Positions 6,737 through 27,003 of a stretch of DNA of 64,000 bases are shown in pieces. Origin of the DNA: Terriglobia bacterium (GTDB lineage: Bacteria; Acidobacteriota; Terriglobia; Bryobacterales; Bryobacteraceae). The position numbers and the translations under genes are program-made. The notes beneath the pieces are model-generated. The model worked only from the letters and a program-made list of their open reading frames with translations, searched no databases and was not told where the DNA came from. The stretch spans positions 243,414 to 307,413 of the forward strand of contig CAVRCX010000007.1 of assembly GCA_963719785.1 (NCBI GenBank), read 5' to 3'. The first letter of the stretch is position 1. Every line of letters starts with the position of its first letter.

Positions 6737-6800
6737 ACGCCTGCGTCAAATATACCAAGGCTGGTGGGGCAGATTTCCGATCTGCCCTCTTTCCGGCCTG

Positions 6801-7558: not shown

Positions 7559-7600
7559 AAAGGTGTCTCTATTTTATGACGATATACGAGGCGTGTGCGT

Positions 7601-8500: not shown

Positions 8501-8573
8501 ACTCAAAATCGCAACCACGTGGGGCGGGTTGCCAACCTGGTTGGCAACCTGCGGCCGATTGGTAATCGGCCTG

Positions 8574-9708
8574 TTAATCCGGAAGCTCATCGCCCGTATC
8601 GTTGGCCGTCTTACCGGTCTTCCGCCAAACCAGATAAGCATGGATCAGCGCTTCCATATCGCCATCCAGAACGCGGTCCACATCGCCGATCGAAAGCTTG
8701 GTCCGATGATCTTTGATCATGCGATACGGGGCCAGCACATAACTCCGAATCTGGCTTCCGAAATTAATCTCCAGCTTTGAAGCCTCGGTCTTGCGCGACT
8801 CCTCCCGCTTCTTCTCGAGCTCCGCCTCATACAGCTTGGCGCGCAGTTGCTTCATCGCGCTGTCGCGATTCTTATGCTGCGACCGCTCATTCTGGCACTG
8901 CACCACGGTATTAGTCGGCAAGTGGGTAATCCGCACCGCCGAATCCGTCATATTGACGTGCTGCCCGCCCGCGCCGCCGGAGCGGAACGTGTCGATGCGA
9001 AGATCTTCCAGCTTGATATCGATCTTGATCTCATCGTCGATCTGCGGATAAACGAACACCGAAGCAAACGAAGTATGGCGCCGGGCGTTGGCATCGAACG
9101 GCGAGATGCGCACCAGCCGATGCACGCCGATTTCCGATTGCAGCATGCCGTAAGCGTTAGGGCCGTTGACCTCAAAAGTGACGGACTTGATTCCCGCGCC
9201 TTCACCCTCCAGCCGGTCCGTGATGACGATGCCGAAGTTATTGCGCTCCGCCCAACGCAGGTACATGCGCATCAGCATCTCCGCCCAGTCCTGCGATTCC
9301 GTCCCACCCGCCCCCGGATGGATCGTCATGATAGCGGGCAGCGAGTCGTTATCGCCCGCCAGCAGCATCTGATCTTCGAGCTTGGTCAGCAGTGCGGAAT
9401 AATTCTTCAGCGCCGGAACGAGTTCGCCTTCCACGGACTCGCCTTCGCGCGCCAGTTCGAAAAGGGTGTCGAGATCGTCCGTCAACGACGCAATGCGCTC
9501 GTTGTTCTCAATGGCTTCCTCAAGCCGTTTGCGGTCCTGCATCGTCTTCTGGCTCTTCGCCGGATCGGACCAGAAGTTCGGCTCGGAAATCAGCTCACCG
9601 ATGCGGTTGAGCTCTATCTTCTTTTTGGGGGCGTCAAAGATAACTCCGCACGGCAGATGCCTGTTCGCGGAGCGGCGAGTATTCGCGTTCCAGTTCTTCG
9701 AGACTCAT
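8574..9708 (-). CDS. prfB: Peptide chain release factor 2, expressed through a programmed +1 ribosomal frameshift
   Basis: The main ORF (8574..9542) holds the GGQ motif (RSGGAGGQHVNMTDSAVRITHLPT) and SPF-like sequence. Upstream in the +1-offset frame is MSLEELEREYSPLREQASAVRSYL, ending at the canonical shift site TAT CTT TGA C (plus-strand complement gtcaaagata at about 9633..9642). A GGAG Shine-Dalgarno-like element lies 3 nt upstream of CTT. Confidence 0.9.
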
Positions 9709-9728
9709 ATGACTTGGTTTCTTTCATT

Positions 9729-10739
9729 TTACAGGATCAACATGCAGTCGCCATACGAAAAGAACCGGTAGCGTTCTTCAACCGCATGCCGGTAAGCGGC
9801 GAGCGCGAACTCCGTGCCGGCCAGAGCGCAGACCAAAAGCAGCAAACTGGTGCGAGGCAGATGGAAATTGGTGAGCATAGCATTCACCCGTTGGAACCGA
9901 TAGCCTGGATAAATGAAGAGGTTGGTCAATCCGTTGCGAAGGCCTGTGGCCGAGGCCGCTTCGATCGTCCGCACGCTGGTAGTTCCAACCGCAATCACAC
10001 GCTTCGCCGCTTCGATTTCACGCCACGACTCTTCCGCAATCGAATAGCGTTCGTAGTGCAGCTGATGATTCTCGAAGTCCTCGCGGTCAATCGGCTGAAA
10101 CGTGCCGAGCCCGACGTGCAAAGTCACGTGAGCGATCGACGCGCCGGATTTTCGCACGTGCTCAATAACGGCGCCGGTGAAATGCAGGCCGGCGGTCGGC
10201 GCCGCCACAGATCCGCGCTCACGAGCAAAGACAGTCTGATACCGCTCGCGATCTTCCACGCGATCGGCGCGCTTGATGTAAGGAGGAAGAGGCATATGAC
10301 CAAGCCGGTCAATCGCCGCATAAACGTCATCGCCGCCAGTCAGGCGAACCGTTCGTTCCCCACGCGCGCCGGAGGCGATAATCTCAGCGGAGAAGTCGTC
10401 GCTGAATCGCACGATGTCGCCAACCCGGAGTTTCCGTCCAGGCCGAACCAAAGCCCGCCACTCCCGAGCATCAGAAGATACCGGCTCAATCAACATTACC
10501 TCGGCATGTGGGACAGGCGCTTCCGCCTGTCCACGCAGCCGGGAAGCCAGCACTCGCGAATCGTTAACCACCAAACAATCGCCCGCGTGAAGAAAACCAG
10601 GCAACTCGCGAAACCAACGATCCTCCCAACGCTGTTCATCCCGATGCACAACCAGCATCCGAGCCCCATCCCGCGCGGCCAAAGGCTCCTGAGCAATCAA
10701 CTCCGCCGGCAGTTCGTAATCGAAATCCGCAAGCCGCAT
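9729..10739 (-). CDS. queA: S-adenosylmethionine:tRNA ribosyltransferase-isomerase
   Basis: MRLADFDYELPAELIAQEPL...GHMPLPPYIKR...TTSVRTIE are hallmarks of QueA. The true start is the Met at aa 28 of the listed ORF. Confidence 0.9.
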   Translation of the reverse strand: MRLADFDYELPAELIAQEPLAARDGARMLVVHRDEQRWEDRWFRELPGFLHAGDCLVVNDSRVLASRLRGQAEAPVPHAEVMLIEPVSSDAREWRALVRPGRKLRVGDIVRFSDDFSAEIIASGARGERTVRLTGGDDVYAAIDRLGHMPLPPYIKRADRVEDRERYQTVFARERGSVAAPTAGLHFTGAVIEHVRKSGASIAHVTLHVGLGTFQPIDREDFENHQLHYERYSIAEESWREIEAAKRVIAVGTTSVRTIEAASATGLRNGLTNLFIYPGYRFQRVNAMLTNFHLPRTSLLLLVCALAGTEFALAAYRHAVEERYRFFSYGDCMLIL

Positions 10740-10743
10740 CAAC

Positions 10744-12519
10744 TCAGGCCTGCTTGGCCTCAAGCTCCGCCCACCGAGCGTATAACCGATCGACCTCAGC
10801 CTGCGCGGAGTCCATCTCATGCACTGCGGCGGTCAAGCGCACCGGATCTGAGACCACCTCCGGCAACTCCAACTGACTCCGTTTCTGGTCGAGCACTTCC
10901 TCCGCACGTTCCACAACCTGCTCGATCTGTTCCCACTCGCGGGCTTCCGTCCACGACAACTTCTTGCGCACAGGGGCGCTCTTGCCTGTCCCCGCCACCG
11001 CTTTCGGAGGCGCCTTTTTCGCCGCATTCGCCTGCTCCCACTGAGCCAGCTCGGCGAAGAACTCCACCTGCCCACGCCCATCCATGGCCATCAGCACAGT
11101 CGACAAACGGTCGAGCAGATAACGATCGTGGGTAACCAGAACAATCGCGCCGGGGAAGTCGGTGAGATTGCTTTCCAGAACCTCGAGCGTCGGAATATCC
11201 AGATCGTTGGTAGGCTCATCAAGCAGCAAAATATCCGCCGGCTGCAGCATCAGGCGAGCGATGTGAACGCGGGCGCGCTCGCCGCCGGAGAGCCGTCCGA
11301 CAGGCAGTTCCAATTGCTCCTGGCGAAACAGAAACCGCGCCGCCCATCCCGCCACGTGCTGTGGCCGATCGCGAAAGATTACCGTGTCACCCTCGGGAGC
11401 CAGCGCCCGCCGCAGAGGCATATCGGGATCGAGCCGATCGCGGTTCTGATCGAAATAAGCCACGCGCAGTCCTTCCGCCCTGCGTATCTCCCCTGTATCC
11501 GGCGCCATCTCGTCGGCGAGCAGACGCAGCAGAGTGGTCTTGCCGCTGCCGTTCGAGCCCAGCACGCCCATCGTCGTTCCGGGTCCGAGCGTGAAGCTCA
11601 CGTTGCTGAAAAGCAGCCGCCCGCCCAGCGTTTTGCCCACGCCCTCGCAGGTAATCAGCCGCTTCGTCAGCCGACCCGTTGCGGAGAAATCGACCAGTGC
11701 CGTGCCCTTCTGATTACGCTCCGTGACATCGGCGAGTTTGCCCTGCAGATCGAACGCATCCTGAATCCGCGCCTTCGATTTCGACGTCCGGGCCTTGGCG
11801 CCGCGCCGCAGCCATTCAATTTCGCGATCCACCAGGTTGGCCAGCGCATCCTGCTCTCGCTGCTGGGCGCGAAGAAATTCCACCCGCTTCTCGAGAAACT
11901 TACTGTAATTCCCGGAAGCCGTGAAAAGCCCCTGCGGATAAGCGCGATTGATCTCGGCGACTCTCGACGACACGTTCTCCAGAAAGTACCGGTCGTGCGT
12001 AATGAAGATCGACGCGAAGGAGGAAGAATTGACCAGCTTCTCCAGCCAGAGAATTCCCTCGACATCCAGATGATTGGTCGGCTCGTCGAGCAGCAGAACA
12101 TCCGGCGCCGATGCCAGCGCAACGGCAATCGCCAGCCGCTTGCGCCACCCGCCCGAGAGCGTTCCGGCAGTCGCGGAGGCGTCTTCAAAACCGACCCGGC
12201 TGATGATTTTCGAGACCTCGATATCGCGATCCTCATGATCGCGCGCGCCGGCTGTAATAATCTCGCGCGCCGTCAGGTCGGGATCGAACACGGGGTCCTG
12301 CACAACCATCGAGAGCCGTACGCCTTTGCGCACGGAGACGGTGCCGGAATCGGCGTCCATGCCACCACCAAGAATCTGCAGGAACGTCGATTTACCGGCG
12401 CCGTTAGGACCGATGATGCCGAGCCGGTCGTCATCGTGCAGACTGAGCGAAATGCCCGTAAACACGGTGCGCGATCCAAACGATTTGCCCAGCGAGTCGC
12501 AGGTGAGGAGGACTGACAT
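10744..12519 (-). CDS. ABC-F family ATPase with two ABC domains and no transmembrane domain (Uup/EttA-like translation factor)
   Basis: Two Walker A motifs (GPNGAGKST and GSNGSGKTT), two LSGG signature motifs (LSGGWRKRLAIA and LSGGERARVHIA), an inter-domain linker and a C-terminal coiled coil (QAEVDRLYARWAELEAKQA). Confidence 0.9.
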   Translation of the reverse strand: MSVLLTCDSLGKSFGSRTVFTGISLSLHDDDRLGIIGPNGAGKSTFLQILGGGMDADSGTVSVRKGVRLSMVVQDPVFDPDLTAREIITAGARDHEDRDIEVSKIISRVGFEDASATAGTLSGGWRKRLAIAVALASAPDVLLLDEPTNHLDVEGILWLEKLVNSSSFASIFITHDRYFLENVSSRVAEINRAYPQGLFTASGNYSKFLEKRVEFLRAQQREQDALANLVDREIEWLRRGAKARTSKSKARIQDAFDLQGKLADVTERNQKGTALVDFSATGRLTKRLITCEGVGKTLGGRLLFSNVSFTLGPGTTMGVLGSNGSGKTTLLRLLADEMAPDTGEIRRAEGLRVAYFDQNRDRLDPDMPLRRALAPEGDTVIFRDRPQHVAGWAARFLFRQEQLELPVGRLSGGERARVHIARLMLQPADILLLDEPTNDLDIPTLEVLESNLTDFPGAIVLVTHDRYLLDRLSTVLMAMDGRGQVEFFAELAQWEQANAAKKAPPKAVAGTGKSAPVRKKLSWTEAREWEQIEQVVERAEEVLDQKRSQLELPEVVSDPVRLTAAVHEMDSAQAEVDRLYARWAELEAKQA

Positions 12520-12521
12520 GG

Positions 12522-13844
12522 TTAATTATGAAGCTCGATTTCAACAGCCGCGGATTCCCGCTCGCCATATACAAGGCTGACCTGTGCGGAGGCCGGTTCC
12601 ATGCCGGCAGGAAGCAATGCGTTGACCTGGCGTGGAGCGTCGCCATGCGCCGGAGCCAGCCAGATCGCGGGCAGATCCGTGCCGTTGAGTCTGATGCGAA
12701 CATCCGCGAGCTCGGTACGCAAAGGGAGTCCCGCCACCCAGACGGATAGCGCACTGTCATCGCCCACGCGAATGCGTTTCGATTCGAAGCTCTTCCCGTC
12801 GGCGACGCGCGTGAGCCGGAGCTCGGGGTCGACGGATGCGTCCCACCATTGCGCATCGATGCCGATGCGCAGTGGCGCACTGAACTCACTCCGTGCCGTA
12901 CGCAGGATGGCATTGTGCCAGCCAGAGCCGAGACCCGGCGGAAGCTTACAAGTGGCCTGCCACCCGCCGCCGCTGCGCGCAACGTGAATCGGCCGCGAAC
13001 CAAATTCCCCGATCTGCGGGAACACGTTATCGCATGTCAGGCTCTCGCTCGCACTGGTGAAGTAGAACGTTAGATAGTCGTCGGCATCGCTCGAAAAGCT
13101 GTGGTCATGCGTAGCGCTGTTATCGATGCAAAGCACCATGGGCGCCGGCTCATCTCCTTCGGCCGCGCGCCACTTGCGATAGCCGGTAACGTGCGCCCGC
13201 TCACCCAGTGCGCTCTCAAAATCCACGCGCGCGAATCCCGCGGTCCGGCAGAACGCCATCAGGCAGGCAGCATTGGGACCCACCCAATTATCCAGCTGTC
13301 CGCGCAACTCAGTGGTCTCGTAGAACTCCATCGCGGGAATCGTGGCCGGATCGGGATCGGTCACAAACGACTCGATACAAGCCAAATCGCGGCACATTCC
13401 GCAAACGTTCTCCAGCGCCAGAAGCGGATGCTTCACGTGATACAGCACGCCCAGAAACAGCACGATATCGAACGTGCCCAGATCCTTCGACGTAACGCGG
13501 CAGATATCGCCGATGTGGTATTCAATGCGCGAGCCCAGCAGCTTCTTCGCTTCGAGCAGCCGCGTATTGCGCGTGGAATCGAGCGCCACAACCTGCGCCC
13601 CGCGCCGCTCCATTTCGAAGCTGAACCATCCGTCCCATGCGCCGATATCGAGCACGCGTTTTCCCGTGAGGTCTTCCGCAATGGGGAACTGGCGGATGCG
13701 CGTGCGCAATTGCCGGATGGTCTGGTGGCCCTCGATGACGCTGCCTCCCGGGAGTTCGATGCTGTGATACCAGCCGAGCTTCGATAGCCGTTCAATCTGG
13801 CGGCGGCTCTCTTCGATGACGCGCGCGTCGCGGGCTTCGCTCAT
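12522..13844 (-). CDS. Class I SAM-dependent methyltransferase (WYHSIELP / DUF1698-like N-terminal domain) carrying a roughly 250-aa C-terminal extension of unknown function
   Basis: WYHSIELPGGSVIEGH...GKRVLDIGAWDGWFSFEMERRGAQVVALD is a Rossmann SAM-binding motif. Its stop and start overlap ttcA (13841..13844) and it sits 3 bp from the ABC-F gene. The C-terminal half (aa 200-440) matched nothing I recognise. Confidence 0.7.
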   Translation of the reverse strand: MSEARDARVIEESRRQIERLSKLGWYHSIELPGGSVIEGHQTIRQLRTRIRQFPIAEDLTGKRVLDIGAWDGWFSFEMERRGAQVVALDSTRNTRLLEAKKLLGSRIEYHIGDICRVTSKDLGTFDIVLFLGVLYHVKHPLLALENVCGMCRDLACIESFVTDPDPATIPAMEFYETTELRGQLDNWVGPNAACLMAFCRTAGFARVDFESALGERAHVTGYRKWRAAEGDEPAPMVLCIDNSATHDHSFSSDADDYLTFYFTSASESLTCDNVFPQIGEFGSRPIHVARSGGGWQATCKLPPGLGSGWHNAILRTARSEFSAPLRIGIDAQWWDASVDPELRLTRVADGKSFESKRIRVGDDSALSVWVAGLPLRTELADVRIRLNGTDLPAIWLAPAHGDAPRQVNALLPAGMEPASAQVSLVYGERESAAVEIELHN

Positions 13845-14644
13845 GCGGGGTGCAGGATCGAAACCAGGTCGGGACTCGCCTCTTCTTCATCCGCAGCTTC
13901 GACTTCGCCATCGGGATCCAGATATCGAGTATCGAGGAGGCGCCCGTGATTGATATTTCCCATGGCGGAGAGGATGTTCTCTTTCAGATGCGGGTGCTCC
14001 AGTTCCCAATCCGCGATAGCTTCGCGAATGCCGCGCCGCACCGTGCCCGTGCGCAGCGAGCAACCGCACGGCACCACGGGAATGCCCTTGCTCTCGACAT
14101 ATCCGCGCGTAATATCTTCATTGACGAAGACCAGCGGCCGGATAAGCCTGTAATCGCGCTGCTTCGAATACGTGACGGCGGGAAGCGAACTGAGCCGGCC
14201 GGTGAACATGATGTTGCGCAGCAGCGATTCGCAGAAATCGTCGGCGGTGTGGCCGAAAGCGATGACGTTGGCGCCCATGCCGCGCGCGATTTGGTAAACG
14301 GCGCGGCGGCGGAAGCGGCTGCACAGATCGCATCCGTGATCGGGTTGCTCCTTCAAAAGCCGGAGCGAAGGATTGTCGGTGTGATACGTCCACTCGATGC
14401 CGAGGCTGCGAATATATTCGCCGACCGCATCGAAGGGGCGAAGGAATTTACCCTGCTCGACAGTGAAGGCGCAGACGGTGAAATCGATCGGGGCTCGTTT
14501 CTGGAGGAGCAGCAGGGCTTCGAGCATGGTGACGGAATCCTTGCCGCCCGAAACCGCCACGGCAATGCGATCGCCGTCGCGGATCATCTTGAAGCGATGG
14601 ATGGCTTCACCGACTTTCCGCAGCAGGGTCTTTTCGAGGTCCAC
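13841..14644 (-). CDS. ttcA: tRNA 2-thiocytidine(32) synthetase TtcA (PP-loop ATPase)
   Basis: PP-loop SGGKDS (AVAVSGGKDSVTMLEAL) and the paired Cys motifs CDLCSRFRR and PCGCSL. Confidence 0.85.
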   Translation of the reverse strand: MDLEKTLLRKVGEAIHRFKMIRDGDRIAVAVSGGKDSVTMLEALLLLQKRAPIDFTVCAFTVEQGKFLRPFDAVGEYIRSLGIEWTYHTDNPSLRLLKEQPDHGCDLCSRFRRRAVYQIARGMGANVIAFGHTADDFCESLLRNIMFTGRLSSLPAVTYSKQRDYRLIRPLVFVNEDITRGYVESKGIPVVPCGCSLRTGTVRRGIREAIADWELEHPHLKENILSAMGNINHGRLLDTRYLDPDGEVEAADEEEASPDLVSILHPA

Positions 14645-14653
14645 GTATTCAGA

Positions 14654-14817
14654 TTAGCGGATCGGCAGTTGATCGTAGGCCGCCATCTCGGGGCGACCCC
14701 AATCTTCCGCAAACGGAGCTAACCGACTGCGCAGATCGGGGGCCTGAGACTCGTCGATCCCGCGTTCACGGAGGTCGACTAGTAAAGCTTCCGTGTCAGA
14801 TACCTTCGACTTCGCCA
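14654..14817 (-). CDS. Small hypothetical protein (54 aa), divergent from higB; possibly an antitoxin-like or addiction-module component
   Basis: MAKSKVSDTEALLVDLRERGIDESQAPDLRSRLAPFAEDWGRPEMAAYDQLPIR. An in-frame ATG with no recognisable domain. Weak call. Confidence 0.25.
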
Positions 14818-14862
14818 TGCGTAATATTGTGACGCACATCTTAAGTAACCGGACTTGGGCGG

Positions 14863-14897
14863 TTGACCTACTATACGGCAATGACGTATAGTAGGGC
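14863..14897 (+). promoter_or_regulatory. higBA promoter (TTGACC, 18-bp spacer, TATAGT) overlapped by a perfect 11-bp inverted repeat that looks like an operator
   Basis: CCTACTATACG-gcaatga-CGTATAGTAGG at about 14867..14895 ends 2 nt before the higB GTG start. The -35 and -10 hexamers sit inside the palindrome arms. Confidence 0.4.
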
Positions 14898-15245
14898 GTG
14901 ATAGCGGAAATCGTGAGCCTGTCGGCGTACGAATCTCAGGTGTCGGCGCTCCTGAACGACTCGGAGCGAATGGCGATGGAATTCTATCTCGCCTGTGCGC
15001 CGGAGGATCATCCGGTCATACCGGGCACGGGCGGTTTTCGTAAGGCACGGTGGGCCCGATCAGGCAAGGGAAAGAGCGGCGGCTTCCGCGTGGTTTATTT
15101 TTTTCTGGCCGAACCGGGGCGGATTTACATGGCTGCAATATATGCCAAATCGCGTGTGGATAGCCTGTCGGCAGCGGATAACAATGTGCTCGCAAAGATT
15201 GCGGCGCAGATTAAAAAAGGGGCAAAGGAAAGGGAACGGTCATGA
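14898..15245 (+). CDS. higB: Type II toxin HigB-2 family (RelE/ParE superfamily, PF09907-like)
   Basis: GTGGFRKARWARSGKGKSGGFRVVYFFLAEPGRIYMAAIYAKSRVDSL aligns closely with Vibrio HigB-2 (GTGGLRKIRVASKGKGKRGGSRIIYYFL...FYLLTIYGKNE..DL). GTG start. It overlaps the downstream HTH gene by 4 bp. Confidence 0.8.
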   Translation: MIAEIVSLSAYESQVSALLNDSERMAMEFYLACAPEDHPVIPGTGGFRKARWARSGKGKSGGFRVVYFFLAEPGRIYMAAIYAKSRVDSLSAADNNVLAKIAAQIKKGAKERERS

Positions 15246-15553
15246 GCGTGCGCAAAGGGCGTACCAAATTCGGCTTGGAACTGGAGGCGAGCGCAAGTGA
15301 AATTCTGGCCCACGTCAAGGGCGAGGTGAAACTGCCGACGCGGCGCATCGTGCTGCCGGACGAGGTGGATGTCAGACGCATCCGGACCAAAGCGCGCATG
15401 TCGCAAGCGGAGTTCGCGCGGGCCTTTTGCATTAATCCGAGAACTCTGCAGGAATGGGAACAGGGGCGCAGAAAACCGGACGCAACTACACGCGCATACC
15501 TGGCGGTGATCGCCAAGAATCGCGAGGCGGTGTTGGATGCCCTGGCGCCATGA
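15242..15553 (+). CDS. higA: HigA-2 family antitoxin (XRE-type helix-turn-helix)
   Basis: MSQAEFARAFCINPRTLQEWEQGRRKPDATTRAYLAVIAKNREAV is a helix-turn-helix with the HigA-2 signature. It lies downstream of the toxin, as in higB2-higA2 operons. Confidence 0.8.
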   Translation: MSVRKGRTKFGLELEASASEILAHVKGEVKLPTRRIVLPDEVDVRRIRTKARMSQAEFARAFCINPRTLQEWEQGRRKPDATTRAYLAVIAKNREAVLDALAP

Positions 15554-15614
15554 CCGATACCGCCGGCTGACACCTACCCTTTCTGAGCTGTCCCTGTCTA
15601 CGATTTTTGGTCAG

Positions 15615-16280
15615 CTAATGATCAGCTCGGGAAACAAGGAGTTGTAAGTCCAGCCGCTGGTCATCTACAAACCCGCCATGAGCCCGAACTTCGTTTACGA
15701 GTGCGCCGCGTTCCACGCCGTACAGCGAGATCAAGGCCGGAAGACAGACCTCAGTGCAACTGGCCTCGAACTTGTGCCGGTCGAAAGTTTGCCGATATTG
15801 GTTTCTTCTTTCCGGAAAAACTAGAAGCAAGCCAAACAGCGCGCGAAGGGCACGCACCCTCACAGATTCGCCGTTAGCAAGGCTCTCCTCGGCATTCTTA
15901 TGCCCACAAAGTTCAGCCAACGGCCCGATGGCCTGCTCCGCCTCGATCCTTGCAGCCAGAAAGATCGCCTCGCCGACAACGTCCTTGTCCTCGAAAGTGC
16001 CTTGACTCGCAAGCCTGTTCAAGAGGATGGCTGCGGCGTCAGCCACCGATCTTTGAAGGTGCCGATGACCCTCGGGAGCATGTAAAGCAACATCTACAAA
16101 TATATCCGCCGGTTTTTCGAATCTTTCAAAACGGGGAAGGGCTGGGTCAATGACACCAGATAGCCTCGATTGAATTACCCTGGCTATATCGTTTGCGCCG
16201 ACGAAAGTTTCTAAATAGCGGCACGTCCTGACCACGCGCATGCGCAGGTTCCAAGGGTCAGGAGCGGAGCCCGGGTTCAT
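15615..16280 (-). CDS. Hypothetical protein (221 aa), predicted all-alpha, no recognisable domain. First gene of a lower-GC two-gene cassette.
   Basis: A long ORF with an ATG start. Its GC is visibly lower (roughly 52-55%) than the flanks (above 60%). A 15-bp gap separates it from the following ORF on the same strand. Confidence 0.5.
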   Translation of the reverse strand: MNPGSAPDPWNLRMRVVRTCRYLETFVGANDIARVIQSRLSGVIDPALPRFERFEKPADIFVDVALHAPEGHRHLQRSVADAAAILLNRLASQGTFEDKDVVGEAIFLAARIEAEQAIGPLAELCGHKNAEESLANGESVRVRALRALFGLLLVFPERRNQYRQTFDRHKFEASCTEVCLPALISLYGVERGALVNEVRAHGGFVDDQRLDLQLLVSRADH

Positions 16281-16295
16281 AGCGTTCCTGCATAT

Positions 16296-17198
16296 TCAAA
16301 TTTCCTGATTCCTCAGGAGTCCTACCAGACTCATCTCTTGTGGAGGGCCCGTTGTGGCGTCAAGCACGCGAAGGCCGATCTGACGACCTTCTCCAATCGA
16401 TACGCCCACCGACGCGTGGACGGCTTCCGGCACACCAAGTTTCCCATACGCCTCTGAAATGTCGACGGTCCGGCCGGGAGTGGGTCCGCCGCCTTCCTCA
16501 GATTTTTTGGTGAAGATCCAGCTTCCCTCCGGTCCGTCCTGCCACGCATCAAGGACCGTCGGAGCCTTAATTGGAACCCCTTTCTCGGCCAGGTAGGCCG
16601 CGCTGTAGCGCACCTCAACGAGCCTATAGCCACTTTGAACCAAGCTCCTTAATCCCAAGCGATCGCGCACGCGGTCGGAAGATGTTTCGCCGCTAAGAGC
16701 GTCGTCGGTAATCCAGAAGGGCCGACCCTCCCTTCCTAGCCTTTTACCCTCAATGTCGTCGCCCGTGCATTTTCCGGCCTGAATCAGCTCGGCAATTCTC
16801 TGCAGCAATCGATCGCCTCCTAATGGAAGGCGAAGTCCGAATCCCACGAAGCGATCAAGTCGTTCAAAATGGCAGACGTCTCCGCCCCAAGCCACCTCCT
16901 GTCCAGGCAGGGCGAACATTTTCTGGTGAGGACCGCGCAGTACGCTCTTTATCAACCGGTAAGGTTCGCTGACTAACTCTCGAAACGAGATGATGTCTGT
17001 TAGGAACTCCGCCCAAACATCTGGATTTATATCGTTACGCGAGCATTCTCGATAAATGTTACGGCGGATCAACAGGGCGTCGTCTCCGACAAAGGCCGCA
17101 CACCACGATTCGAACGTGAATCGAAAGCGGTGGCTCAGCGTTTTTTGCCAATACACTTCGAATTGATTCGGACTTTCCGCTACGGCCCCGCCGCTCAT
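16296..17198 (-). CDS. Hypothetical protein (300 aa), no recognisable domain. Second gene of the lower-GC two-gene cassette.
   Basis: A long ORF with an ATG start and the same low-GC signature. It sits 67 bp downstream of the OPT transporter gene on the same strand. Confidence 0.5.
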   Translation of the reverse strand: MSGGAVAESPNQFEVYWQKTLSHRFRFTFESWCAAFVGDDALLIRRNIYRECSRNDINPDVWAEFLTDIISFRELVSEPYRLIKSVLRGPHQKMFALPGQEVAWGGDVCHFERLDRFVGFGLRLPLGGDRLLQRIAELIQAGKCTGDDIEGKRLGREGRPFWITDDALSGETSSDRVRDRLGLRSLVQSGYRLVEVRYSAAYLAEKGVPIKAPTVLDAWQDGPEGSWIFTKKSEEGGGPTPGRTVDISEAYGKLGVPEAVHASVGVSIGEGRQIGLRVLDATTGPPQEMSLVGLLRNQEI

Positions 17199-17265
17199 GA
17201 GTCTGGGTTAGTCTACCACGATCACGACAGCAAATCGGGCCCTACAGGACTGTTATTGCCCAGCC

Positions 17266-19305
17266 TTACACGATAACCGCGGGCGGAGCCGGATCCTCGG
17301 GCCTTCCCGCATTCTTCAGCGGCACCTGCACCAGCACAAGCGCCAGCACGGCCAGCGCGACCAGCCCCACCATGTAAGAAGGATTGGCCATCATCTGCGG
17401 CACCTTGATGTCCTTATAGTTGAACCAGGCGATCACCAGCCCCATCAGCGCCTCGCCCGCGATCATTCCTGATGCCGCGAGCACCCCCACGCTTTCCACC
17501 CGCGCCCGCTGCGCTTCGTTATATCCGCGCTGCCGCGCCATCGCGTCCGAAACCCAGCGCACCATGCCGCCGATGAATATCGCAAACGTGGTCCCAATGG
17601 GCAGATACATGCCGATGGCCACCAGCATCGGACTCTTCACGCCGATCATGATCATAGCCACGCCCATCATGATTCCCACGATGATCAGCGGCCACGCCAT
17701 ATCGCCGCCGACGATGCCCTGCGCGAGCGACGCCATCAGTCCCGCCTGCGGAGCGGAAAGTTTAGGATCGCCGAAACCGATTCCGCCCGTGTTGATATTG
17801 CCCTGGTGCAGCGCGAGAAGCGGGAAATACATCACCGCGCTCGCCACTACCACGGCAATCAGTTCCACGATCTGGATGCTGCGCGGCGTGCCTCCAATGA
17901 TGTAGCCGACTTTGAAATCCTGTAGCAGTTCGCCCGCCACTGCGCTCGAAACGCAGACCACCGCCGCCACTCCGAGAACCGCGATGACGCCGCCCGTTCC
18001 CGAAACTCCCAGCGCCACCATCAGCAGCGCGGCGATGATCACGGTGGAGAGAGTCAGTCCCGAAATCGGATTGTTCGACGATCCTATAACGCCCACCAGG
18101 TAGCCAGAAACCGTGGCGAAGCAGAAACCCACAATCAGCATCACCAACGCGGCGACAAGGGCTGGCACGATTCCTCCCGACAGATATTTGTAGAGCGCGA
18201 TCATAGCCACGAAGACGAGGAAAATGCCCATCAGAACTACGCGCGAACTCATATAACGTTCGGTCCGAACGGTGGTCTCGGGCGGAGCGGCGCCGGTCTT
18301 CAGTTCATGGAACGCGCGCACCAATCCGCCCAGCAGCGCCTTGCGCATCTTGAAGAGCGTGTAGCACGCGCCGGTGAGCATGCCGCCGACGGCGATGGGT
18401 CGCACGATGAATCTCCAGACCGCATTGGCCATGGTCAGCCACGACTCATCGGTGGCATTGGCCGGCAGGAAGCTCTGCAGTTGGGGACCCAGGAAGTAGA
18501 TCAGCAGCGGGACGAGCAGCCCCCAGGCGATCAGGCTCCCGGAGAAGTTGAGCGCCGCGAGCGCCGGCCCGATCACATAGCCGACCCCGACATACGCGGG
18601 GCTGATGGTCGGGCCCGAGAACACGGTAACGCCGCCGGTGGCCAGTCTGTTGGTGGATCCCGGAGCGCCCAGCCGCAGCATCGTGCGTCCCAGTTTGCCC
18701 ACGGGAAGGAACCAGTCCTGATCGGTTGCGAACACGCCGAACGCGCTGGCGAGGAAGATGGCGGCGGCGAGACCCATGTTGTAGAAGAGATACTTGGCTG
18801 CCTCTGCGCCCACCTGACCCGCCTTGTGGATCTGGGACGCGGCCACGGATTCTGGGAACGGGAGCGTGGGATCTTCCACCAGCACGCGCCGGATCAGCGA
18901 GACGAACAGCACGCCGAGGATGCTGCCGGTCATCATCAGAGCGGTTGATTTCCAGTACGCCGTGCCGGGCGAAAAATCGAGCCACGAACGCGAGATTACG
19001 AATGCCGGGATAGTAAACACCGCGCCCGCCGCTACCGATTCGCCGATGGATCCGGCCGTTCGCGCGATGTTCTCTTCGAGGATCGATCCTTTGAAGATGC
19101 GCAGCACCGCCATGCCGATAACAGCAGCGGGATAAGTAGCCGCGATGGTCTGGCCCGCTTTGAGGCCGAGGTAGGCGTTGGCGGCGCCGAGGACCACGCA
19201 CATCACGAGGCCGAGCAGCACCGCGCGGAGCGTGAACTCCTTCATCTGAACATTGGGCGGAACGAACGGCTTGTGCTCGTGAGGGGGCGTCATGTGGTCG
19301 CTCAA
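17266..19305 (-). CDS. OPT family oligopeptide transporter
   Basis: 679 aa, polytopic. MKEFTLRAVLLGLVMCVVLGAANAYLGLKAGQTIAATYPAAVIGMAVLRI and ...GSSNNPISG... are typical of OPT/YGL114w bacterial members. Confidence 0.9.
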   Translation of the reverse strand: MSDHMTPPHEHKPFVPPNVQMKEFTLRAVLLGLVMCVVLGAANAYLGLKAGQTIAATYPAAVIGMAVLRIFKGSILEENIARTAGSIGESVAAGAVFTIPAFVISRSWLDFSPGTAYWKSTALMMTGSILGVLFVSLIRRVLVEDPTLPFPESVAASQIHKAGQVGAEAAKYLFYNMGLAAAIFLASAFGVFATDQDWFLPVGKLGRTMLRLGAPGSTNRLATGGVTVFSGPTISPAYVGVGYVIGPALAALNFSGSLIAWGLLVPLLIYFLGPQLQSFLPANATDESWLTMANAVWRFIVRPIAVGGMLTGACYTLFKMRKALLGGLVRAFHELKTGAAPPETTVRTERYMSSRVVLMGIFLVFVAMIALYKYLSGGIVPALVAALVMLIVGFCFATVSGYLVGVIGSSNNPISGLTLSTVIIAALLMVALGVSGTGGVIAVLGVAAVVCVSSAVAGELLQDFKVGYIIGGTPRSIQIVELIAVVVASAVMYFPLLALHQGNINTGGIGFGDPKLSAPQAGLMASLAQGIVGGDMAWPLIIVGIMMGVAMIMIGVKSPMLVAIGMYLPIGTTFAIFIGGMVRWVSDAMARQRGYNEAQRARVESVGVLAASGMIAGEALMGLVIAWFNYKDIKVPQMMANPSYMVGLVALAVLALVLVQVPLKNAGRPEDPAPPAVIV

Positions 19306-19751
19306 GAAAGCCGCGCTTTCACTTTTTCGCTGAGCGCTTTACCGTCGATGGTCTTGCCCGTAAGCTTCGCCTGCACGGCCTTGATCACCAGGCCCATCTG
19401 TTTGGCCGAGGTGGCGCCGGTCTCCTGAATGGCCGCATCGAGCGCCGTCTGAACCTCTTCATCGCTGGCCGCCGCCGGCAGGTAGCTTTCGATGATCTTG
19501 CGCTCGGCTTCTTCTTTGAGCGCCAGTTCCTCGCGTCCGCCCTTGCGGAACATTTCGGCGGCGTCGATGCGCTGCTTGACCAGGCTCTTGAGCACGGCCT
19601 GCTCGCCCGCGTCGTCCAGAGGCTTCGACGGATCGACCACATTAGCCTTCTGTAAGGCGGTTTTTATCATGCGTATAGCGCTTAAACGCAGCTCTTCTTT
19701 GGCCTTCATGGCGGCCACAAGGTCCTTTTGTAACTGCTCTGATACAGGCAT
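19302..19751 (-). CDS. yqeY: GatB/YqeY domain-containing protein
   Basis: The C-terminal 149 aa of the long antisense ORF 19302..20873 (MPVSEQLQKDLVAAMKAKEELRLSAIRMIKTALQKANV...AIQETGATSAKQMGLVIKAVQAKLTGKTIDGKALSEKVKARLS) match the YqeY family. The rest of that ORF is antisense to serC and is rejected. Confidence 0.8.
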   Translation of the reverse strand: MPVSEQLQKDLVAAMKAKEELRLSAIRMIKTALQKANVVDPSKPLDDAGEQAVLKSLVKQRIDAAEMFRKGGREELALKEEAERKIIESYLPAAASDEEVQTALDAAIQETGATSAKQMGLVIKAVQAKLTGKTIDGKALSEKVKARLS

Positions 19752-19784
19752 GGTTTGATATTCTAAAGACTCTACTTCCTTCCC

Positions 19785-20954
19785 ATGTACATTCGCAAGC
19801 AACGTTTGCTTACACCCGGTCCTACGCCTCTTTACCCACCCGCGCTGCACGCCATGATGGCGTCCGATATCCATCATCGGACAGAGGAATTCCGCAACGT
19901 TTATAAGTCCGCACTGGCGGACCTGAAAGAAGTTTACGGCACGCAGGGCGACGTGCTCTGTTTCGCGGCATCGGGCACCGGCGCCATGGATGCTTCCGTG
20001 TCGAATCTCTTCTCGAAGGGCGACAAAGTGGTGGTGTGCACGGCCGGTAAATTCGGCGAGCGCTGGGCTGAGATCGCCAAAGCTTACGGACTGGATGCCA
20101 ACGTTCTCAAAGTCGAGTACGGCGAAGTGGTCACGCCGGATCGGATTGAGGCGGCTCTGAAGGCTGAGCCGGGGACGAAGGGCGTTTTCATACAGGCGTC
20201 GGAGACTTCCACGGGCGCGGAGCACGACGTGAAGACCATTGCCGAAATCGTGAAGAAAACCGATGCGATCTTCGTGGTGGATGCGATTACCGGGCTCGGC
20301 ACCATGCCGCTCGATATCGATGGCTGGGGGCTCGACGTCGTGATCGGCGGGTCGCAGAAAGCCTTCATGATTCCGCCCGGCCTTGCCTTCATGTCGGTGA
20401 GCGCCAAGGCCTGGAAGCATGCCGATAAGGCCGATCTGCCGCATTACTACTTCAATCTGAAGAAAGAAAAGAAGAGCGGCGATGGGGGCGAATCGAGCTG
20501 GACGCCAGCCACTTCGCTGATTCTGGCGTTGGGCGAGGCGCTGAAGTACATCAAGAAGGTGGGGATGGCGCATCTGATTGAGAACGCGCAGCTGCTGGCG
20601 CGCGCCACGCGTGAGGCCACCGGCGAACTGGGGCTGGAGCTTTTCGCCAAACGTCCGGGCAGTTCGGTGACCGCGGTCAAAGCGCCGGCGGGGATAGACT
20701 CGGGCGCTATCGTGAAGGGCTTCAAGGAGCGCTTCGGCGCCATCATCGCTAACGGCCAGGGCAGCATGAAGGGGCAGATCTTCCGCATGGCGCATCTGGG
20801 CTACTTCGATTTTGCCGACATGTTCGGCGTCATCGCGGGACTGGAGATTATCCTGCGCGCCAATGGGCACCATGTGGAACTGGGCAAGGGAGTCGCGGCG
20901 GTGCAGCGAGTCTATGAGGCCGCCAAAGCGGCGCCGAAGCTGGCAGCGGCCTGA
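19785..20954 (+). CDS. serC: Class V pyridoxal-phosphate-dependent aminotransferase (serine-pyruvate / phosphoserine aminotransferase type). Probably the phosphoserine aminotransferase partner of serA.
   Basis: LLTPGPTPL...GGSQKAFMIPPGLAF... is the class V aminotransferase-fold Lys region. It sits immediately upstream of serA on the same strand. Confidence 0.75.
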   Translation: MYIRKQRLLTPGPTPLYPPALHAMMASDIHHRTEEFRNVYKSALADLKEVYGTQGDVLCFAASGTGAMDASVSNLFSKGDKVVVCTAGKFGERWAEIAKAYGLDANVLKVEYGEVVTPDRIEAALKAEPGTKGVFIQASETSTGAEHDVKTIAEIVKKTDAIFVVDAITGLGTMPLDIDGWGLDVVIGGSQKAFMIPPGLAFMSVSAKAWKHADKADLPHYYFNLKKEKKSGDGGESSWTPATSLILALGEALKYIKKVGMAHLIENAQLLARATREATGELGLELFAKRPGSSVTAVKAPAGIDSGAIVKGFKERFGAIIANGQGSMKGQIFRMAHLGYFDFADMFGVIAGLEIILRANGHHVELGKGVAAVQRVYEAAKAAPKLAAA

Positions 20955-20959
20955 ATCAG

Positions 20960-22531
20960 ATGAATGTCCTGATCGCTGAGCCGATGGCTCAGGCCGGCAT
21001 CGAGTTGTTCCAGGCGCAGCCCGGCTGGAACGTCATCGTCTCCAATCCGAAAGAGTACGCGAAGCATCTGGCCGACGCCGACGCGCTGGTGGTGCGCAGT
21101 GCCGTACAGGTGACACCGGATGTCTTGAAACAAGCACCGAAGCTGCGTGTCATCGGGCGGGCAGGCGTGGGTGTCGATAATGTCGACCTCGCGGCGGCTA
21201 CGGCGGCGGGCGTTCTGGTAATGAATACGCCGGGCGGAAATGCCGTTTCGGTGGCTGAGCACACCATCGCGCTGATGCTTTCCATGGCGCGGTCTATTCC
21301 TCAGGCGAGCGCGTCAACCAAAGCCGGCAAATGGGAGAAGAAGAAATTCCTCGGCAGTGAATTGCGCGGCAAGACCTTGGGCATCGTGGGACTGGGCAGC
21401 ATTGGGCGCGAGGTCGTGAAGCGCGCGCGGGCATTTGAGATGCGTGCGATTGCGCACGATCCGTATGTGACACCGCAGATCGGCAAGGACGTCGGAGTGG
21501 AATTGGTCGGCCTGCACGAGCTTTACCGGCGCAGCGATTACATCACGGTGCACGTTTCGCTGACTCCTGAGACCGACAACCTGCTCAACAAAGAAGCCTT
21601 CGCGCAGATGAAAAAGGGCGTGCGCATTGTGAATTGCGCGCGGGGCGAACTGCTCGATGAGGGGGCGTTGAAGGCGGCCATCGAATCAGGCAAAGTGGCG
21701 GGCGCGGCGCTCGACGTATTCGCCAATGAGCCGACGGATGCGTCGTTTCCCTTGTTCAGCCTCGATTCGGTGCTGGCCACTCCGCACATCGGCGGGGCCA
21801 CTGAAGAAGCGCAGGAGATTGTGGGCGTGCGGATCGCCGAGCAGTTGGTTGAATTCCTGCGCAATGGCGTGGCGATTAACGCGGTGAACATGCCATCGCT
21901 GTCGCCGGATCAGTATCAGGCGGCCGCACCGTTTATCGATCTGGCCGAGCGTCTGGGCAATTTCGCGGCGCATCTGGTAACCGGCAACCCGACCACCGTT
22001 CGGCTGACGTATCTGGGGAAAGTTGCGGATATGAACACCAGCCTGCTGCGCAACGCGGGTCTGGCGGGAGTGCTGAACCGCTCGGCATCGCGTGCCAACG
22101 TGGTGAACGCCATGCAGATTGCCGCCGAGCGCGGCTGGAATGTGGCCGAAGTGCATGACAAGAGGTCGGCGCAATCCGACACCATCCGCCTGGAAGTTGA
22201 AACCGAGATTAGTATTACGACCGTAGAAGGCGCGGTCGTTCTGGACAAACCCCGGCTCATGCACGTGGATGGCATCTATTGCGAGGCGCCTCTCGCGGGG
22301 GAACTGGTTTTCCTTAAAAATATGGACGTTCCGGGCGTGATCGGCCACGTCGGCTCGGTGCTTGGATCGAACCGGATCAATATTGCCAATTTTTCGCTGG
22401 GGCGCCGCGATTCAGGCCCCCCCGAGGCCGTCGCCGTGATTGCCACCGACACGCTGGTACCCCAGCATGTACTGGATCAGCTGATGGCGAACCCGGCGAT
22501 TAAGCTGGCCCGGTCGGTGGCTATTGCCTGA
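20960..22531 (+). CDS. serA: D-3-phosphoglycerate dehydrogenase with C-terminal ASB/ACT regulatory domains
   Basis: NAD-binding GIVGLGSIGREVVKRA, the catalytic RGE/H region (CARGELLDEGAL...TPHIGGAT), and a long C-terminal ACT domain. 523 aa. Confidence 0.9.
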   Translation: MNVLIAEPMAQAGIELFQAQPGWNVIVSNPKEYAKHLADADALVVRSAVQVTPDVLKQAPKLRVIGRAGVGVDNVDLAAATAAGVLVMNTPGGNAVSVAEHTIALMLSMARSIPQASASTKAGKWEKKKFLGSELRGKTLGIVGLGSIGREVVKRARAFEMRAIAHDPYVTPQIGKDVGVELVGLHELYRRSDYITVHVSLTPETDNLLNKEAFAQMKKGVRIVNCARGELLDEGALKAAIESGKVAGAALDVFANEPTDASFPLFSLDSVLATPHIGGATEEAQEIVGVRIAEQLVEFLRNGVAINAVNMPSLSPDQYQAAAPFIDLAERLGNFAAHLVTGNPTTVRLTYLGKVADMNTSLLRNAGLAGVLNRSASRANVVNAMQIAAERGWNVAEVHDKRSAQSDTIRLEVETEISITTVEGAVVLDKPRLMHVDGIYCEAPLAGELVFLKNMDVPGVIGHVGSVLGSNRINIANFSLGRRDSGPPEAVAVIATDTLVPQHVLDQLMANPAIKLARSVAIA

Positions 22532-22678
22532 TCAGATCTCGCAGCCGGGATGCTCGCAGCCACAAGAGATTTCGGTGGTGTCTTTTGCCCCTTCGCAATA
22601 GGAACTACAGTACTTCTCATCCTTCGCGACCAGACACATACATGATTCGTGGGCACACTTCTTCTGTTCATCGGCCAT
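22532..22678 (-). CDS. Candidate bacterial metallothionein-like small Cys-rich protein (48 aa), missing from the ORF track
   Basis: Translation: MADEQKKCAHESCMCLVAKDEKYCSSYCEGAKDTTEISCGCEHPGCEI. That is 9 Cys and 2 His in 48 aa, in C-x-C / C-x2-C / GC-x-HPGC arrangements reminiscent of SmtA/BmtA. It lies convergent with serA, with its stop adjacent to the serA stop. Confidence 0.4.
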   Translation of the reverse strand: MADEQKKCAHESCMCLVAKDEKYCSSYCEGAKDTTEISCGCEHPGCEI

Positions 22679-22759
22679 GGCGTTTCACCTCGGAGGCATA
22701 CTAGCACGTAAAAGGCCGTTGCCTTGGGTATCGCCGCGATTTATCAATGAAACAGCCGG

Positions 22760-23782
22760 ATGCTAGAGTCGTTAGTGGAACAAACCTTGAACAACAGCCC
22801 TCACGCAGTGATTCCCGCGGGGAGCCGGGCCGCCGTATCCGGTGCGGCAGGTTTCATTGGTTCGCATCTTTGCGATCGTTTGCTGGCTGACGGGTGCGAA
22901 GTGATTGCCCTCGACAATCTGCTTACAGGGTCGTTGCGCAATATCGCGCACCTGGAAGGCAACAGGCGCTTTCACTTCCTTCTGCATGACGTGACGAGGC
23001 CGGTCGAAATCAGCGGTTCGGTGGATTTCGTTTTGCACCTGGCATCGCCCGCCAGTCCGAAGGATTACCTCGAGCATCCCATCGAAACGCTGGACGTCGG
23101 GTCGCTCGGGACGCGCCAGATGCTGGAATTGGCACAGCGAAATAACGCAAAATTTCTGTTGACGTCGACTTCCGAATCGTATGGAGATCCTTCGGTGCAC
23201 CCGCAGGTGGAAACGTACTGGGGGAACGTGAATCCCGTGGGCCCGCGGTCCTGTTATGACGAGAGCAAACGATTCGCCGAGGCGCTCACCATGGCTTACC
23301 ACCGGGCGCGCGGCGTGCGCAGCAGCATTGCCCGGATCTTCAATACCTACGGACCTCGTATGAAGCTCAATGACGGCCGCGTGGTCCCGGCGTTTATGGA
23401 CCAGGCGTTGCGCGGTGAGCCCATTACGATCTTCGGGGATGGATCGCAGACGCGCAGCTTTTGTTACGTCAGCGATCTGGTGGATGGTTTGTGCCGGCTT
23501 CTTCTTTCCGAGGAGGCGATGCCGGTGAATATTGGCAATCCGCGAGAGATGACCATTCTTGAGTTCGCGGAGGTTATTACGGAGCTGACGGGCAACAAGG
23601 CTGGCATCGTGCACCGCGATTTGCCGGAAGACGACCCGAAGCAGCGCCAGCCGGATATCGCCAAGGCCAGGCGGTTGCTGGGTTGGGAGCCGAAGGTCAC
23701 GCTGGAGGAGGGGCTTCGCCATACAGTCGAATACTTCCGCCCGCTGGCGCTGAAGGCGTCGCCGGAAGCTCAGCCGGTCTAG
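22760..23782 (+). CDS. UDP-glucuronate decarboxylase (UDP-xylose synthase); NAD-dependent epimerase/dehydratase family
   Basis: [15 protein letters not shown] (Rossmann), ...YDESKRFAE... (the YxxxK catalytic motif) and ...FNTYGPRM... are typical of UXS/ArnA-type decarboxylases. Confidence 0.85.
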
Positions 23783-23788
23783 CACCGC

Positions 23789-24076
23789 ATGAAGAGGCTG
23801 TTAATCGAAGTGGCGATCGCCCTGGCAGTTTTGGCGATCGTGGTTTACGGCTTCGACTATGGCTCGGTGAAATGGCGTCAGCACGGCAACGTCAAAGTGT
23901 TCGGCGACATGCGGGTCGATCACCTCTACACGTCGACCAACAAGTGGAACGAAGTGGAATGGAGCCGAAGCAGCCCCACCACGGAACGCTGCCTCTATTC
24001 ACTGCTTCCGCATTTTGGATATCCCCCGTGCTGGTATCTGAAGCGCCACCCCATCCAGATCACTAACACCGATTAA
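23789..24076 (+). CDS. Hypothetical small membrane protein (95 aa)
   Basis: An N-terminal transmembrane helix LLIEVAIALAVLAIVVYGF. It starts 6 bp after the UXS gene. No recognisable domain. Confidence 0.35.
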   Translation: MKRLLIEVAIALAVLAIVVYGFDYGSVKWRQHGNVKVFGDMRVDHLYTSTNKWNEVEWSRSSPTTERCLYSLLPHFGYPPCWYLKRHPIQITNTD

Positions 24077-24428: not shown

Positions 24429-24842
24429 CTAAAACTCGATCACGTTCAGGTTCGGAATCATGCGAAAGTGCCGGAGATTCCGCGTACCGATCCCATAGCC
24501 CAGGTGAAGGGCGGTTACTCCGATGAGCAGGTCCTCGAACGGGATCGACAGCCCGGCCCGTTTCGCGTCGGCGTCGATTTTCGCCGCAAGCTGGCCCATC
24601 TCCTTTGTGAACGGTTCCACAGGAATGGCGAGGAAGCCGGTATCGAGGTACGCCCGCCGCTGCCGTGCCAGTGCCTGAGTATTGGCGCGATGCAGACCGT
24701 GTTCCAGTTCGATCACGGTAATCGACGAGATGACGACCTCGGTTTCTCCGTGCTTCTGTTCGAGTTCCAGCAACATAGCGCTGACCGGTTTGGCGCCACG
24801 CTCGGCGGCGATCAGAACGCTAGAGTCGAGGACTAACCCCAT
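24429..24842 (-). CDS. vapC: PIN-domain toxin VapC
   Basis: MGLVLDSSVLIAAERG... with the conserved acidic residues (D6, E42-like and the ...IGVTAL... region). It sits 4 bp downstream of the antitoxin gene. The true start is at aa 42 of the listed ORF. Confidence 0.8.
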   Translation of the reverse strand: MGLVLDSSVLIAAERGAKPVSAMLLELEQKHGETEVVISSITVIELEHGLHRANTQALARQRRAYLDTGFLAIPVEPFTKEMGQLAAKIDADAKRAGLSIPFEDLLIGVTALHLGYGIGTRNLRHFRMIPNLNVIEF

Positions 24843-26395: not shown

Positions 26396-26401
26396 GTTGT
26401 A

Positions 26402-26477: not shown

Positions 26478-26486
26478 TCAAAATCA

Positions 26487-26987: not shown

Positions 26988-27003
26988 GTAGGTACTTTAC
27001 AGT

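Follow-up and report, generated by a model that had tools for sequence, protein, structure and literature searches.

A conserved gene pair from a Bryobacteraceae genome encoding a HEAT-like solenoid and a predicted ADP-ribosyltransferase-like protein: a candidate conflict module

Organization and composition of the locus

For this study a stretch of 64,000 nucleotides from a Terriglobia bacterium of the Bryobacteraceae (contig CAVRCX010000007.1), referred to here as the window, was analysed around a cassette of two genes. An earlier interpretation made from the letters of this DNA (the sequence-only reading) had described the cassette as two same-strand open reading frames (ORFs) of 221 and 300 amino acids (AA), 15 bp apart, and had regarded it as a possible new accessory or defence system. 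The coordinates and the minus-strand orientation of both ORFs were confirmed. Gene 1 (16296-17198, minus strand, 300 AA) is transcribed first and encodes an N-terminal helical region followed by a predicted ADP-ribosyltransferase (ART)-like alpha/beta core. Gene 2 (15615-16280, minus strand, 221 AA) follows after a spacer of 15 bp (16281-16295, minus strand), and an AGGAA ribosome-binding site can be read 5 nt 5′ of its ATG. Its product, the conserved partner of the gene 1 protein, has an all-alpha HEAT/ARM-like solenoid fold and is proposed here to be a neutraliser (immunity protein or antitoxin) or a sensor. The peptide GKCTGDDIEGKRLGREGRPFWITDD, which had been quoted from the 300-AA protein, is part of the gene 1 translation. 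Conservation of the protein sequences at 28-70% identity in other genomes identifies both ORFs as real genes.

As had been described, the cassette lies between an OPT transporter gene and a HigB-2/HigA-2 module. The transporter gene (17266-19305, minus strand, Pfam PF03169) precedes gene 1 on the same strand with a gap of 67 bp. On the other side, the end of gene 2 is convergent with the antitoxin gene of the HigB-2 module, with 61 bp between them. This module consists of a HigB-2-type toxin gene (14898-15245, plus strand; Pfam PF06296, 27.7 bits against a cutoff of 27) and an HTH_3/NadS-like antitoxin gene (15242-15553, plus strand; Pfam PF01381, NadS/MqsA-like in NCBIfam). We found no convincing promoter, terminator or flanking repeat bounding the pair in the window sequence, and no operator-like palindrome 5′ of gene 1. 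The idea that the ends of the cassette are marked by flanking repeats or an integrase was rejected, as neither was found.

The GC content of the pair is 55.6%, compared with 60.6% and 61.3% for the 5-kb flanks and 59.2% for the window, and it falls into the 3rd percentile among segments of equal size. The drop announced by the sequence-only reading is therefore real, but its size is 5.0-5.7 points relative to the flanks and not 8-10. The contrast is clearer for the GC content of third codon positions, with values of 0.57 and 0.59 for the two genes versus 0.73-0.80 for the adjacent genes. Further low-GC stretches occur in the window, for example at 25-28 kb.

Conservation of the gene pair across lineages

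Homologs of gene 1 and gene 2 were found adjacent and co-oriented in seven independent lineages, with identities of the gene 1 products to the window protein ranging from 60% down to 28% and with different flanking genes in each lineage. By this comparison, the pair is a conserved two-gene unit. The first lineage is that of the window and its strain-level relatives (L005-L008), in which the DNA of the pair (300 + 221 AA) is identical in all five assemblies and is flanked by OPT and HigBA. In L001-L003 the products of 297 and 222 AA are 60% and 50% identical to the window proteins, and the neighbours are a 758-AA unknown protein and an acyltransferase, with DnaK/DnaJ further on. In L004 (256 + 211 AA) the partner is a direct homolog of the 221-AA protein (P0013, E 8e-46) and the pair is flanked by a VapBC module and MutS, and in the Bryobacteraceae metagenome-assembled genome (MAG) L009 (299 + 222 AA; partner hhalign E 9e-43) by an S53-type peptidase, an HTH protein and a DEAD helicase.

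More distant versions of the pair show the same arrangement. The gene 1 product of L011/L012 (292 + 234 AA) is 33% identical to that of the window, its partner is recognized by hhalign with a probability of 95.7% (E 1e-8), and the flanks hold PdxS/PdxT, a low-molecular-weight phosphatase and, about 6 kb off, HicA. In L015 (295 + 258 AA, gene 1 28% identical; partner hhalign probability 97%, E 1e-10) a GFO/IDH oxidoreductase and SnoaL-like proteins surround the pair. The seventh lineage, L013, is partial: a 286-AA gene 1 product, flanked by AspRS, is followed by a reading frame with the N-terminal motif of the partner, inside which the contig stops. Two other contigs are too short to show whether a partner is present. 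Short spacers recur outside the window: L001 and L009 have 17 bp between the two genes and L011 and L004 have 48-59 bp, although the gap in L015 measures 303 bp. In most of the compared loci the partner diverges faster than gene 1, for instance with 50% vs. 60%, 39% vs. 47% and 26% vs. 33% identity. Faster divergence than that of the cognate toxin is expected of immunity proteins.

We also observed that the composition of the pair, described earlier as foreign, is atypical here and in every other host examined, with a GC content of about 55-58% vs. about 59-65% in the host flanks. The compared pairs (55.3-58.2% GC, in hosts of 59.7-64.3%) are located at 7090-8669 in L001, 1233-2698 in L004, 7971-9556 in L009, 6001-7632 in L011 and 2894-4861 in L015. 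Such constant foreign GC suggests a cassette that moves between genomes with its own composition; other possible causes are recent transfer and a constraint imposed by the encoded proteins. Two small, co-oriented and tightly spaced genes that stay paired and move independently of their flanks are a generic feature of type II toxin-antitoxin (TA) systems, and the pair shows it.

The neighbours of the pair in the seven contexts are mostly housekeeping genes (OPT, SerA, MutS, DnaK, AspRS, PdxST, DEAD helicase), and in this small sample no defence island was seen. The defence-type surroundings expected by the sequence-only reading were thus not found, and neither was a PADLOC match. TA genes stand near the pair in three of the seven contexts, namely HigBA in the window, VapBC in L004 and HicA in L011. 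HigBA is absent beside the pair in L001-L004, L009, L011 and L015, so that HigBA, to whose adjacency importance had been attached, is not part of the unit. A single four-gene system of HigBA and the pair was rejected, as the pair occurs elsewhere without HigBA. In the L001-L003 lineage only, a protein of 758-839 AA is encoded divergently upstream of the pair (4592-6868 in L001, 188-2464 in L002 and 362-2881 in L003, all minus strand); it has no Pfam or PADLOC match.

Family searches and distribution

Neither protein gave a match in Pfam, NCBIfam or PADLOC at E<=1, in agreement with the earlier failure to place either of them in a family, or in PHROGs at E<=0.1. PDB sequence searches returned noise-level matches only (E about 0.3) for both, and tblastn against 50,697 phage and 72,556 plasmid records was negative. 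A word-indexed search of 5.8 billion proteins yielded nine relatives of gene 1 and four of gene 2. With a nine-sequence profile, an exhaustive hidden Markov model search of 1.84 billion representatives recovered 65 clusters at E<=1e-3, of which 28 reached E<=1e-30. For further analyses of gene 1 we used an alignment of 34 full-length members, 21-60% identical to the window protein. These 34 members had no Pfam match at E<=10, the PDB profile search at E<=10 was also empty, and a repeat homolog search with the 34-sequence profile added one further protein only. No sequence-family match was found for the seven members of the gene 2 family. A gene 1 version of 170 AA (P0002 in L008) was considered as a truncation and rejected; its DNA is identical and only the called start differs.

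As judged from these searches, the pair is outside every described family, and we found no description of an ART-plus-HEAT pair in the literature. Among species-representative genomes only one, a Bryobacteraceae (Acidobacteriota) MAG, carries the family. One distant member was found on a contig of 36% GC, and the family therefore crosses large taxonomic distances. With few members, most of them from uncultured soil bacteria, the family has a limited practical reach until an activity is demonstrated.

The most distant stand-alone gene 1 homolog, P0072 (21% identity), is encoded in L010 (contig Ga0491458_000271, 1-12864, 36% GC), with an inovirus-like module (Rep_1, Zot) immediately upstream of it. 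On its downstream side come overlapping genes for unknown proteins of 326 and 766 AA and then genes of a GTPase-associated conflict system (GAAD/GASH). The helical-looking 326-AA protein was considered as a remote homolog of the partner; this was not supported (hhalign probability below 1%).

Predicted structure and conserved residues

The gene 1 product was modelled with AlphaFold2 from a shallow, nine-sequence alignment. The mean predicted local distance difference test score (pLDDT) of the model is 64.5. Its first 58 residues and the stretch 215-252 cannot be relied on, and most 10-residue blocks within residues about 100-215 and 255-285 have a pLDDT of 77-93. The model comprises a beta/alpha core at about residues 100-285, with strands at 107-113, 161-164, 193-199, 243-246, 253-261 and 275-278. 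Structural matches of this core were obtained with SPN NAD+ glycohydrolase (score 5.5), mouse Tpt1 (5.0), Rhs1-CT (4.6), the NADase Tne2 (4.6), yeast Tpt1 (4.5), DarT of M. tuberculosis (4.4), CC0527 (4.3) and Thermus DarT (4.0). Rhs1-CT is the rRNA ADP-ribosyltransferase Tre23. Agrobacterium 6b and AvrPphF ORF2, which have ART-like folds, were also among the matches, and Scabin, RES, Certhrax, VIP2 and OspC3 appeared lower down. CC0527 is listed as a divergent ART (PMC8120803).

The ART core consists of about six beta-strands, most of them followed by a helix, that together form the NAD+ cleft (PMC8120803). ARTs are defined by this six-stranded core and by an H-Y-E or R-S-E triad with an essential Glu (PMC8120803). 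A core of about six strands is present in the gene 1 model, and we conclude that the predicted core has an ART topology, with the caveat of the shallow alignment.

Comparison of the 34 members revealed a number of conserved positions. Residues 47-57, in the helical region, carry an N-terminal motif, NxDRECxRxDI, with R50, E51, R54 and D56 conserved. Position 110, on the first core strand, is R in 22 members and H in nine, an alternation that we liken to that of the first triad residue in R-S-E vs. H-Y-E ARTs, where the H or R is on the first strand and Y or S-T-S on the following one. The second strand carries an invariant W162 followed by T/S164, and E258, within a G-x-P-E-A-V-H motif on a later strand, is invariant in all members. 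Other conserved core positions are R178, E195, Y198, the invariant P213-T214, D217, K231 and H261. Taken together, R/H110, T/S164 and E258 would fit the pattern of an ART triad, provided that the three share one cleft.

For gene 2, the assumption of an all-alpha, HEAT/ARM-like protein held true: its fold is a HEAT-like alpha-solenoid of the protein-binding type. Immunity proteins built of HEAT repeats (Imm-HEAT) have been described as a class (PMC3482391).

SIR2 fusions and a possible role in anti-phage defence

An N-terminal SIR2_2 domain is present in three members of the gene 1 family: P0057 (581 AA), P0062 (627 AA) and P0068, which is a fragment. The SIR2_2 part, and only this part, matches the PADLOC models of ThsA (E 9e-32), LmuA and Dsr1/2. 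A fourth protein, P0061 (393 AA), closely resembles P0062 from the SIR2-to-linker region onwards and itself has no SIR2 Pfam match. The sources of these four proteins include L016 and a JGI contig. P0057, P0061 and P0062, which cover the core, retain R110, W162, T/S164, E195, Y198, T214, D217 and H261. All three have S or A in place of E258 and of R178, and have also lost the neighbouring G182-L183. No comparable partner gene was found downstream at the two fusion loci inspected. Replacement of the two residues together with the lack of a partner would be anticipated if catalysis depends on E258 and R178 and if the partner serves only to restrain an active enzyme. In the simplest reading, E258 and R178 would serve an activity that is no longer required when SIR2 acts as the effector, and only the active form would need the solenoid beside it. 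The fusion itself may represent an undescribed single-gene SIR2 defence architecture.

These fusions bear on the possibility that the pair is an anti-phage sensor/effector system, in which the solenoid recognises a phage protein and activates an ART-like, NAD+-consuming effector, leading to abortive infection. A precedent exists in DSR2, where a SIR2 effector is joined to an alpha-solenoid sensor and the C-terminal solenoid domain recognises the tail tube protein (PMC11850899). Our pair likewise combines a putative NAD+-consuming domain with a partner of solenoid fold, as DSR2 does (PMC11850899), and its gene 1 domain family is fused to SIR2 of the defence type, the three fusion members matching ThsA, DSR1/DSR2 and LmuA-SIR2 in this part. 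Atypical composition, patchy distribution of the pair and the position of the distant P0072 beside a Rep_1/Zot module and conflict genes point in the same direction. Unlike the SIR2 effectors, however, gene 1 of the window lacks SIR2, and the solenoid is encoded here by a gene of its own, for which the PADLOC scan showed no sequence similarity to DSR2. Searches of PADLOC-DB v2 gave no match for genes 1 and 2 (E<=1) or for two distant gene 1 homologs and their downstream partners (E<=0.01). In addition, no sign of a phage trigger was seen, the phage and plasmid records searched hold no homologs, and in all seven loci the neighbours speak for housekeeping surroundings. By these comparisons, the pair is not a known defence system and is not located in a defence island, and we consider the anti-phage explanation unlikely.

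Comparison with ART-type toxins and enzymes

DarT-DarG, an ART toxin with its antitoxin that also acts in phage defence, comes close in general design. Gene 1 differs from it by the lack of a DarT-family match at Pfam E<=10 and by its extra conserved N-terminal helical region. Its partner has the fold of a HEAT-like solenoid and is not a macrodomain hydrolase, with no Macro or DarT match in Pfam or PADLOC for either protein; neutralisation would therefore be by binding only. Pairs of ART-fold NADase or ART effectors with cognate immunity proteins are also known, among them SPN-IFS, Tne2-Tni2, Tre23/Rhs1-CT-RhsI1 and Tre1-Tri1. In contrast to polymorphic toxins, the N-terminus of gene 1 is conserved across the family and not variable. 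No Rhs, PAAR, LXG, signal peptide or other trafficking module was detected for the pair, and within the listed flanks there are no genes of type VI or type VII secretion, contact-dependent inhibition or other secretion systems. The pair looks, from its sequence, intracellular rather than like an exported effector. Nor does it have the make-up of the RES-Xre or ParT-ParS systems, in which a RES/ParT toxin is joined to an Xre/ParS antitoxin, and membership of gene 1 in RES found no support.

KptA/Tpt1 proteins, divergent ARTs that act on nucleic-acid phosphates, suggest a role outside conflict. In such a case gene 1 would encode a Tpt1/KptA- or DraT-like enzyme acting on RNA or DNA ends or on a specific protein, in repair or regulation, and the solenoid would be an adaptor or scaffold. 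The best structural matches of gene 1 are with KptA/Tpt1, solenoids are common as adaptors, the neighbourhoods are of the housekeeping type, and the physiological role of KptA/Tpt1 in bacteria is non-toxic or unknown (PMC6333775, PMC12678800). At the level of sequence, however, gene 1 shows no relation to these proteins by hhalign, and the adjacent Arg-His is not among the conserved columns of its family, whereas the catalytic tetrad of Tpt1/KptA is Arg-His-Arg-Arg (PMC6333775, PMC8120803). The loci also differ from one another, with no conserved neighbourhood that would point to a pathway, and extreme rarity, foreign GC in every host and fusion to a defence-type SIR2 are typical of conflict modules. 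We regard an accessory role as improbable. To our knowledge, Tpt1 has no dedicated partner protein.

Among the systems compared, ART toxin/immunity and DarTG-type modules appear the nearest to our pair, yet in each case the features that define the named family are lacking.

Proposed function of the gene pair

Based on the predicted structure and the conserved pairing, we propose, with a probability of roughly 0.4, that the two genes were acquired horizontally and form a self-contained conflict module of the toxin/neutraliser type, with gene 1 encoding the ART-like component and gene 2 the neutraliser. The gene 1 product would be a divergent member of the ART fold superfamily. R/H110 on the first core strand, W162-x-T164 on the second and E258 on the later strand would form the cleft that binds NAD+, with R178 as a further presumably essential residue, and the protein would either ADP-ribosylate a cellular target or hydrolyse NAD+. 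The target may be nucleic acid, since the nearest folds are those of KptA/Tpt1, DarT and Tre23; this is a hint and not a result. Gene 2 is probably translated from the same transcript, and its product would hold the gene 1 protein in an inactive state by binding to it, much as in SPN-IFS, Tne2-Tni2, Tre23-RhsI1 and Imm-HEAT. The genes, their pairing and composition, the gene 2 fold and the topology of the gene 1 model are what the analysis provides; from there we infer NAD+ use, toxicity, neutralisation by binding and the nature of the target. An isolated insertion of two genes fits a TA-like module better than a defence-island system.

Several observations weigh against this proposal. Three of the five gene 1 models scored 51 or below. 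Foldseek against PDB gave nothing significant for the gene 1 model (best KptA/Tpt1, E about 0.3, probability 0.2-0.3), and hhalign of the 34-sequence profile against E. coli KptA returned a probability of 0.1%. No sequence or profile link to any ART family emerged from Pfam (E<=10, 34 members), the PDB profile search, NCBIfam or PADLOC, and the common cleft of the putative triad is inferred. On the side of the partner, no HTH, RHH or AbrB domain was found in the 221-AA family, unlike in typical type II antitoxins, and the gene 1 and gene 2 proteins show no charge complementarity. The order of the genes, with gene 1 first, is atypical for classical TA pairs, though it matches that of higBA and darTG. 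Finally, the SIR2 fusions may be read otherwise, with the gene 1 domain being primarily a sensor.

The same evidence raises the question of whether the resemblance to ARTs is spurious and due to a mediocre model, gene 1 being in fact a new-fold domain that binds a ligand or protein, or an enzyme that does not use NAD+, and the pair having a function we did not anticipate. The low mean pLDDT with three weak models out of five, the failure of Foldseek and of profile searches to connect gene 1 with ARTs, and the placement of the domain at the usual sensor-domain position of the SIR2 fusions are all consistent with such an artefact. However, the position that alternates between R and H and the invariant Glu are both located on strands where an ART would have them. 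This explanation is rather unlikely in our judgement.

In its wider form, our toxin/neutraliser proposal would describe a hitherto unrecognised ART-superfamily clade with its own HEAT-like partner, forming a new toxin/neutraliser (or defence) family, from which a catalytically dead version of the domain was recruited as the C-terminal sensor or regulator of ThsA/DSR-type SIR2 NADase effectors; we put this forward tentatively, as somewhat less likely than not. The pair would then represent an ART-like clade that has so far lacked annotation and whose partner is of a new type, its links to conflict systems being the ART-like fold and the SIR2 fusion. If true, the pair would add a new sequence family to the ART superfamily, whose members have repeatedly proved to be toxins, defence effectors and useful nucleic-acid- or protein-modifying enzymes, and the stand-alone HEAT-like solenoid would be a new type of partner restraining ART enzymes. 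The Glu-less SIR2-fused relatives would likewise illustrate that a single domain can act as an enzyme in one system and probably as a sensor in another, and would thereby help in understanding the assembly of NAD+-centred immune systems.

Strain-level comparison and other elements of the window

Over positions 15300-24000 of the window, which include the pair, OPT, SerA and most of HigA, we found essentially 100% identity to L005, and the five strain-level assemblies are all 100% identical to one another in the pair and throughout the 15.3-24 kb block. An estimate of dN/dS from the strain comparison was rejected because of this identity. The region 5500-15250 differs by 3-10% from L005 (L006-L008 were also compared), with the boundary near the higB/higA junction. 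Such mosaic divergence reflects either a recombination tract or a chimeric metagenome assembly.

Directly 5′ of the HigB start (14898), we identified a near-perfect palindrome of 14 + 14 nt, CCTACTATACGGCA T TGACGTATAGTAGG, at 14867-14895. It overlaps the only sigma-70-like promoter match of the region, TTGACC-18-TATAGT (14863-14892), and is probably the HigA operator and the higBA promoter. A small ORF at 14654-14881 (minus strand; 75 AA in the ORF list, 61 AA as called in L005) lies between a TtcA-like gene and higB and has no Pfam match.

A 2.1-kb segment, 25141-27275, is absent from L005 and L006, where about 106 bp stand in its place, and is the lowest-GC part of the window (0.54-0.56). 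A 427-AA ORF at 25044-26327 (minus strand) shows, as read by eye only, a SWIM-like CxC...CxH motif and a transposase-like C-terminal half. The segment also holds a 166-AA ORF and a tRNA-Ser(gga) gene at 26402-26477, and there is no tRNA at that point in L005. It looks like a strain-specific mobile-element insertion beside a PIN/antitoxin-like pair at 24429-25135.

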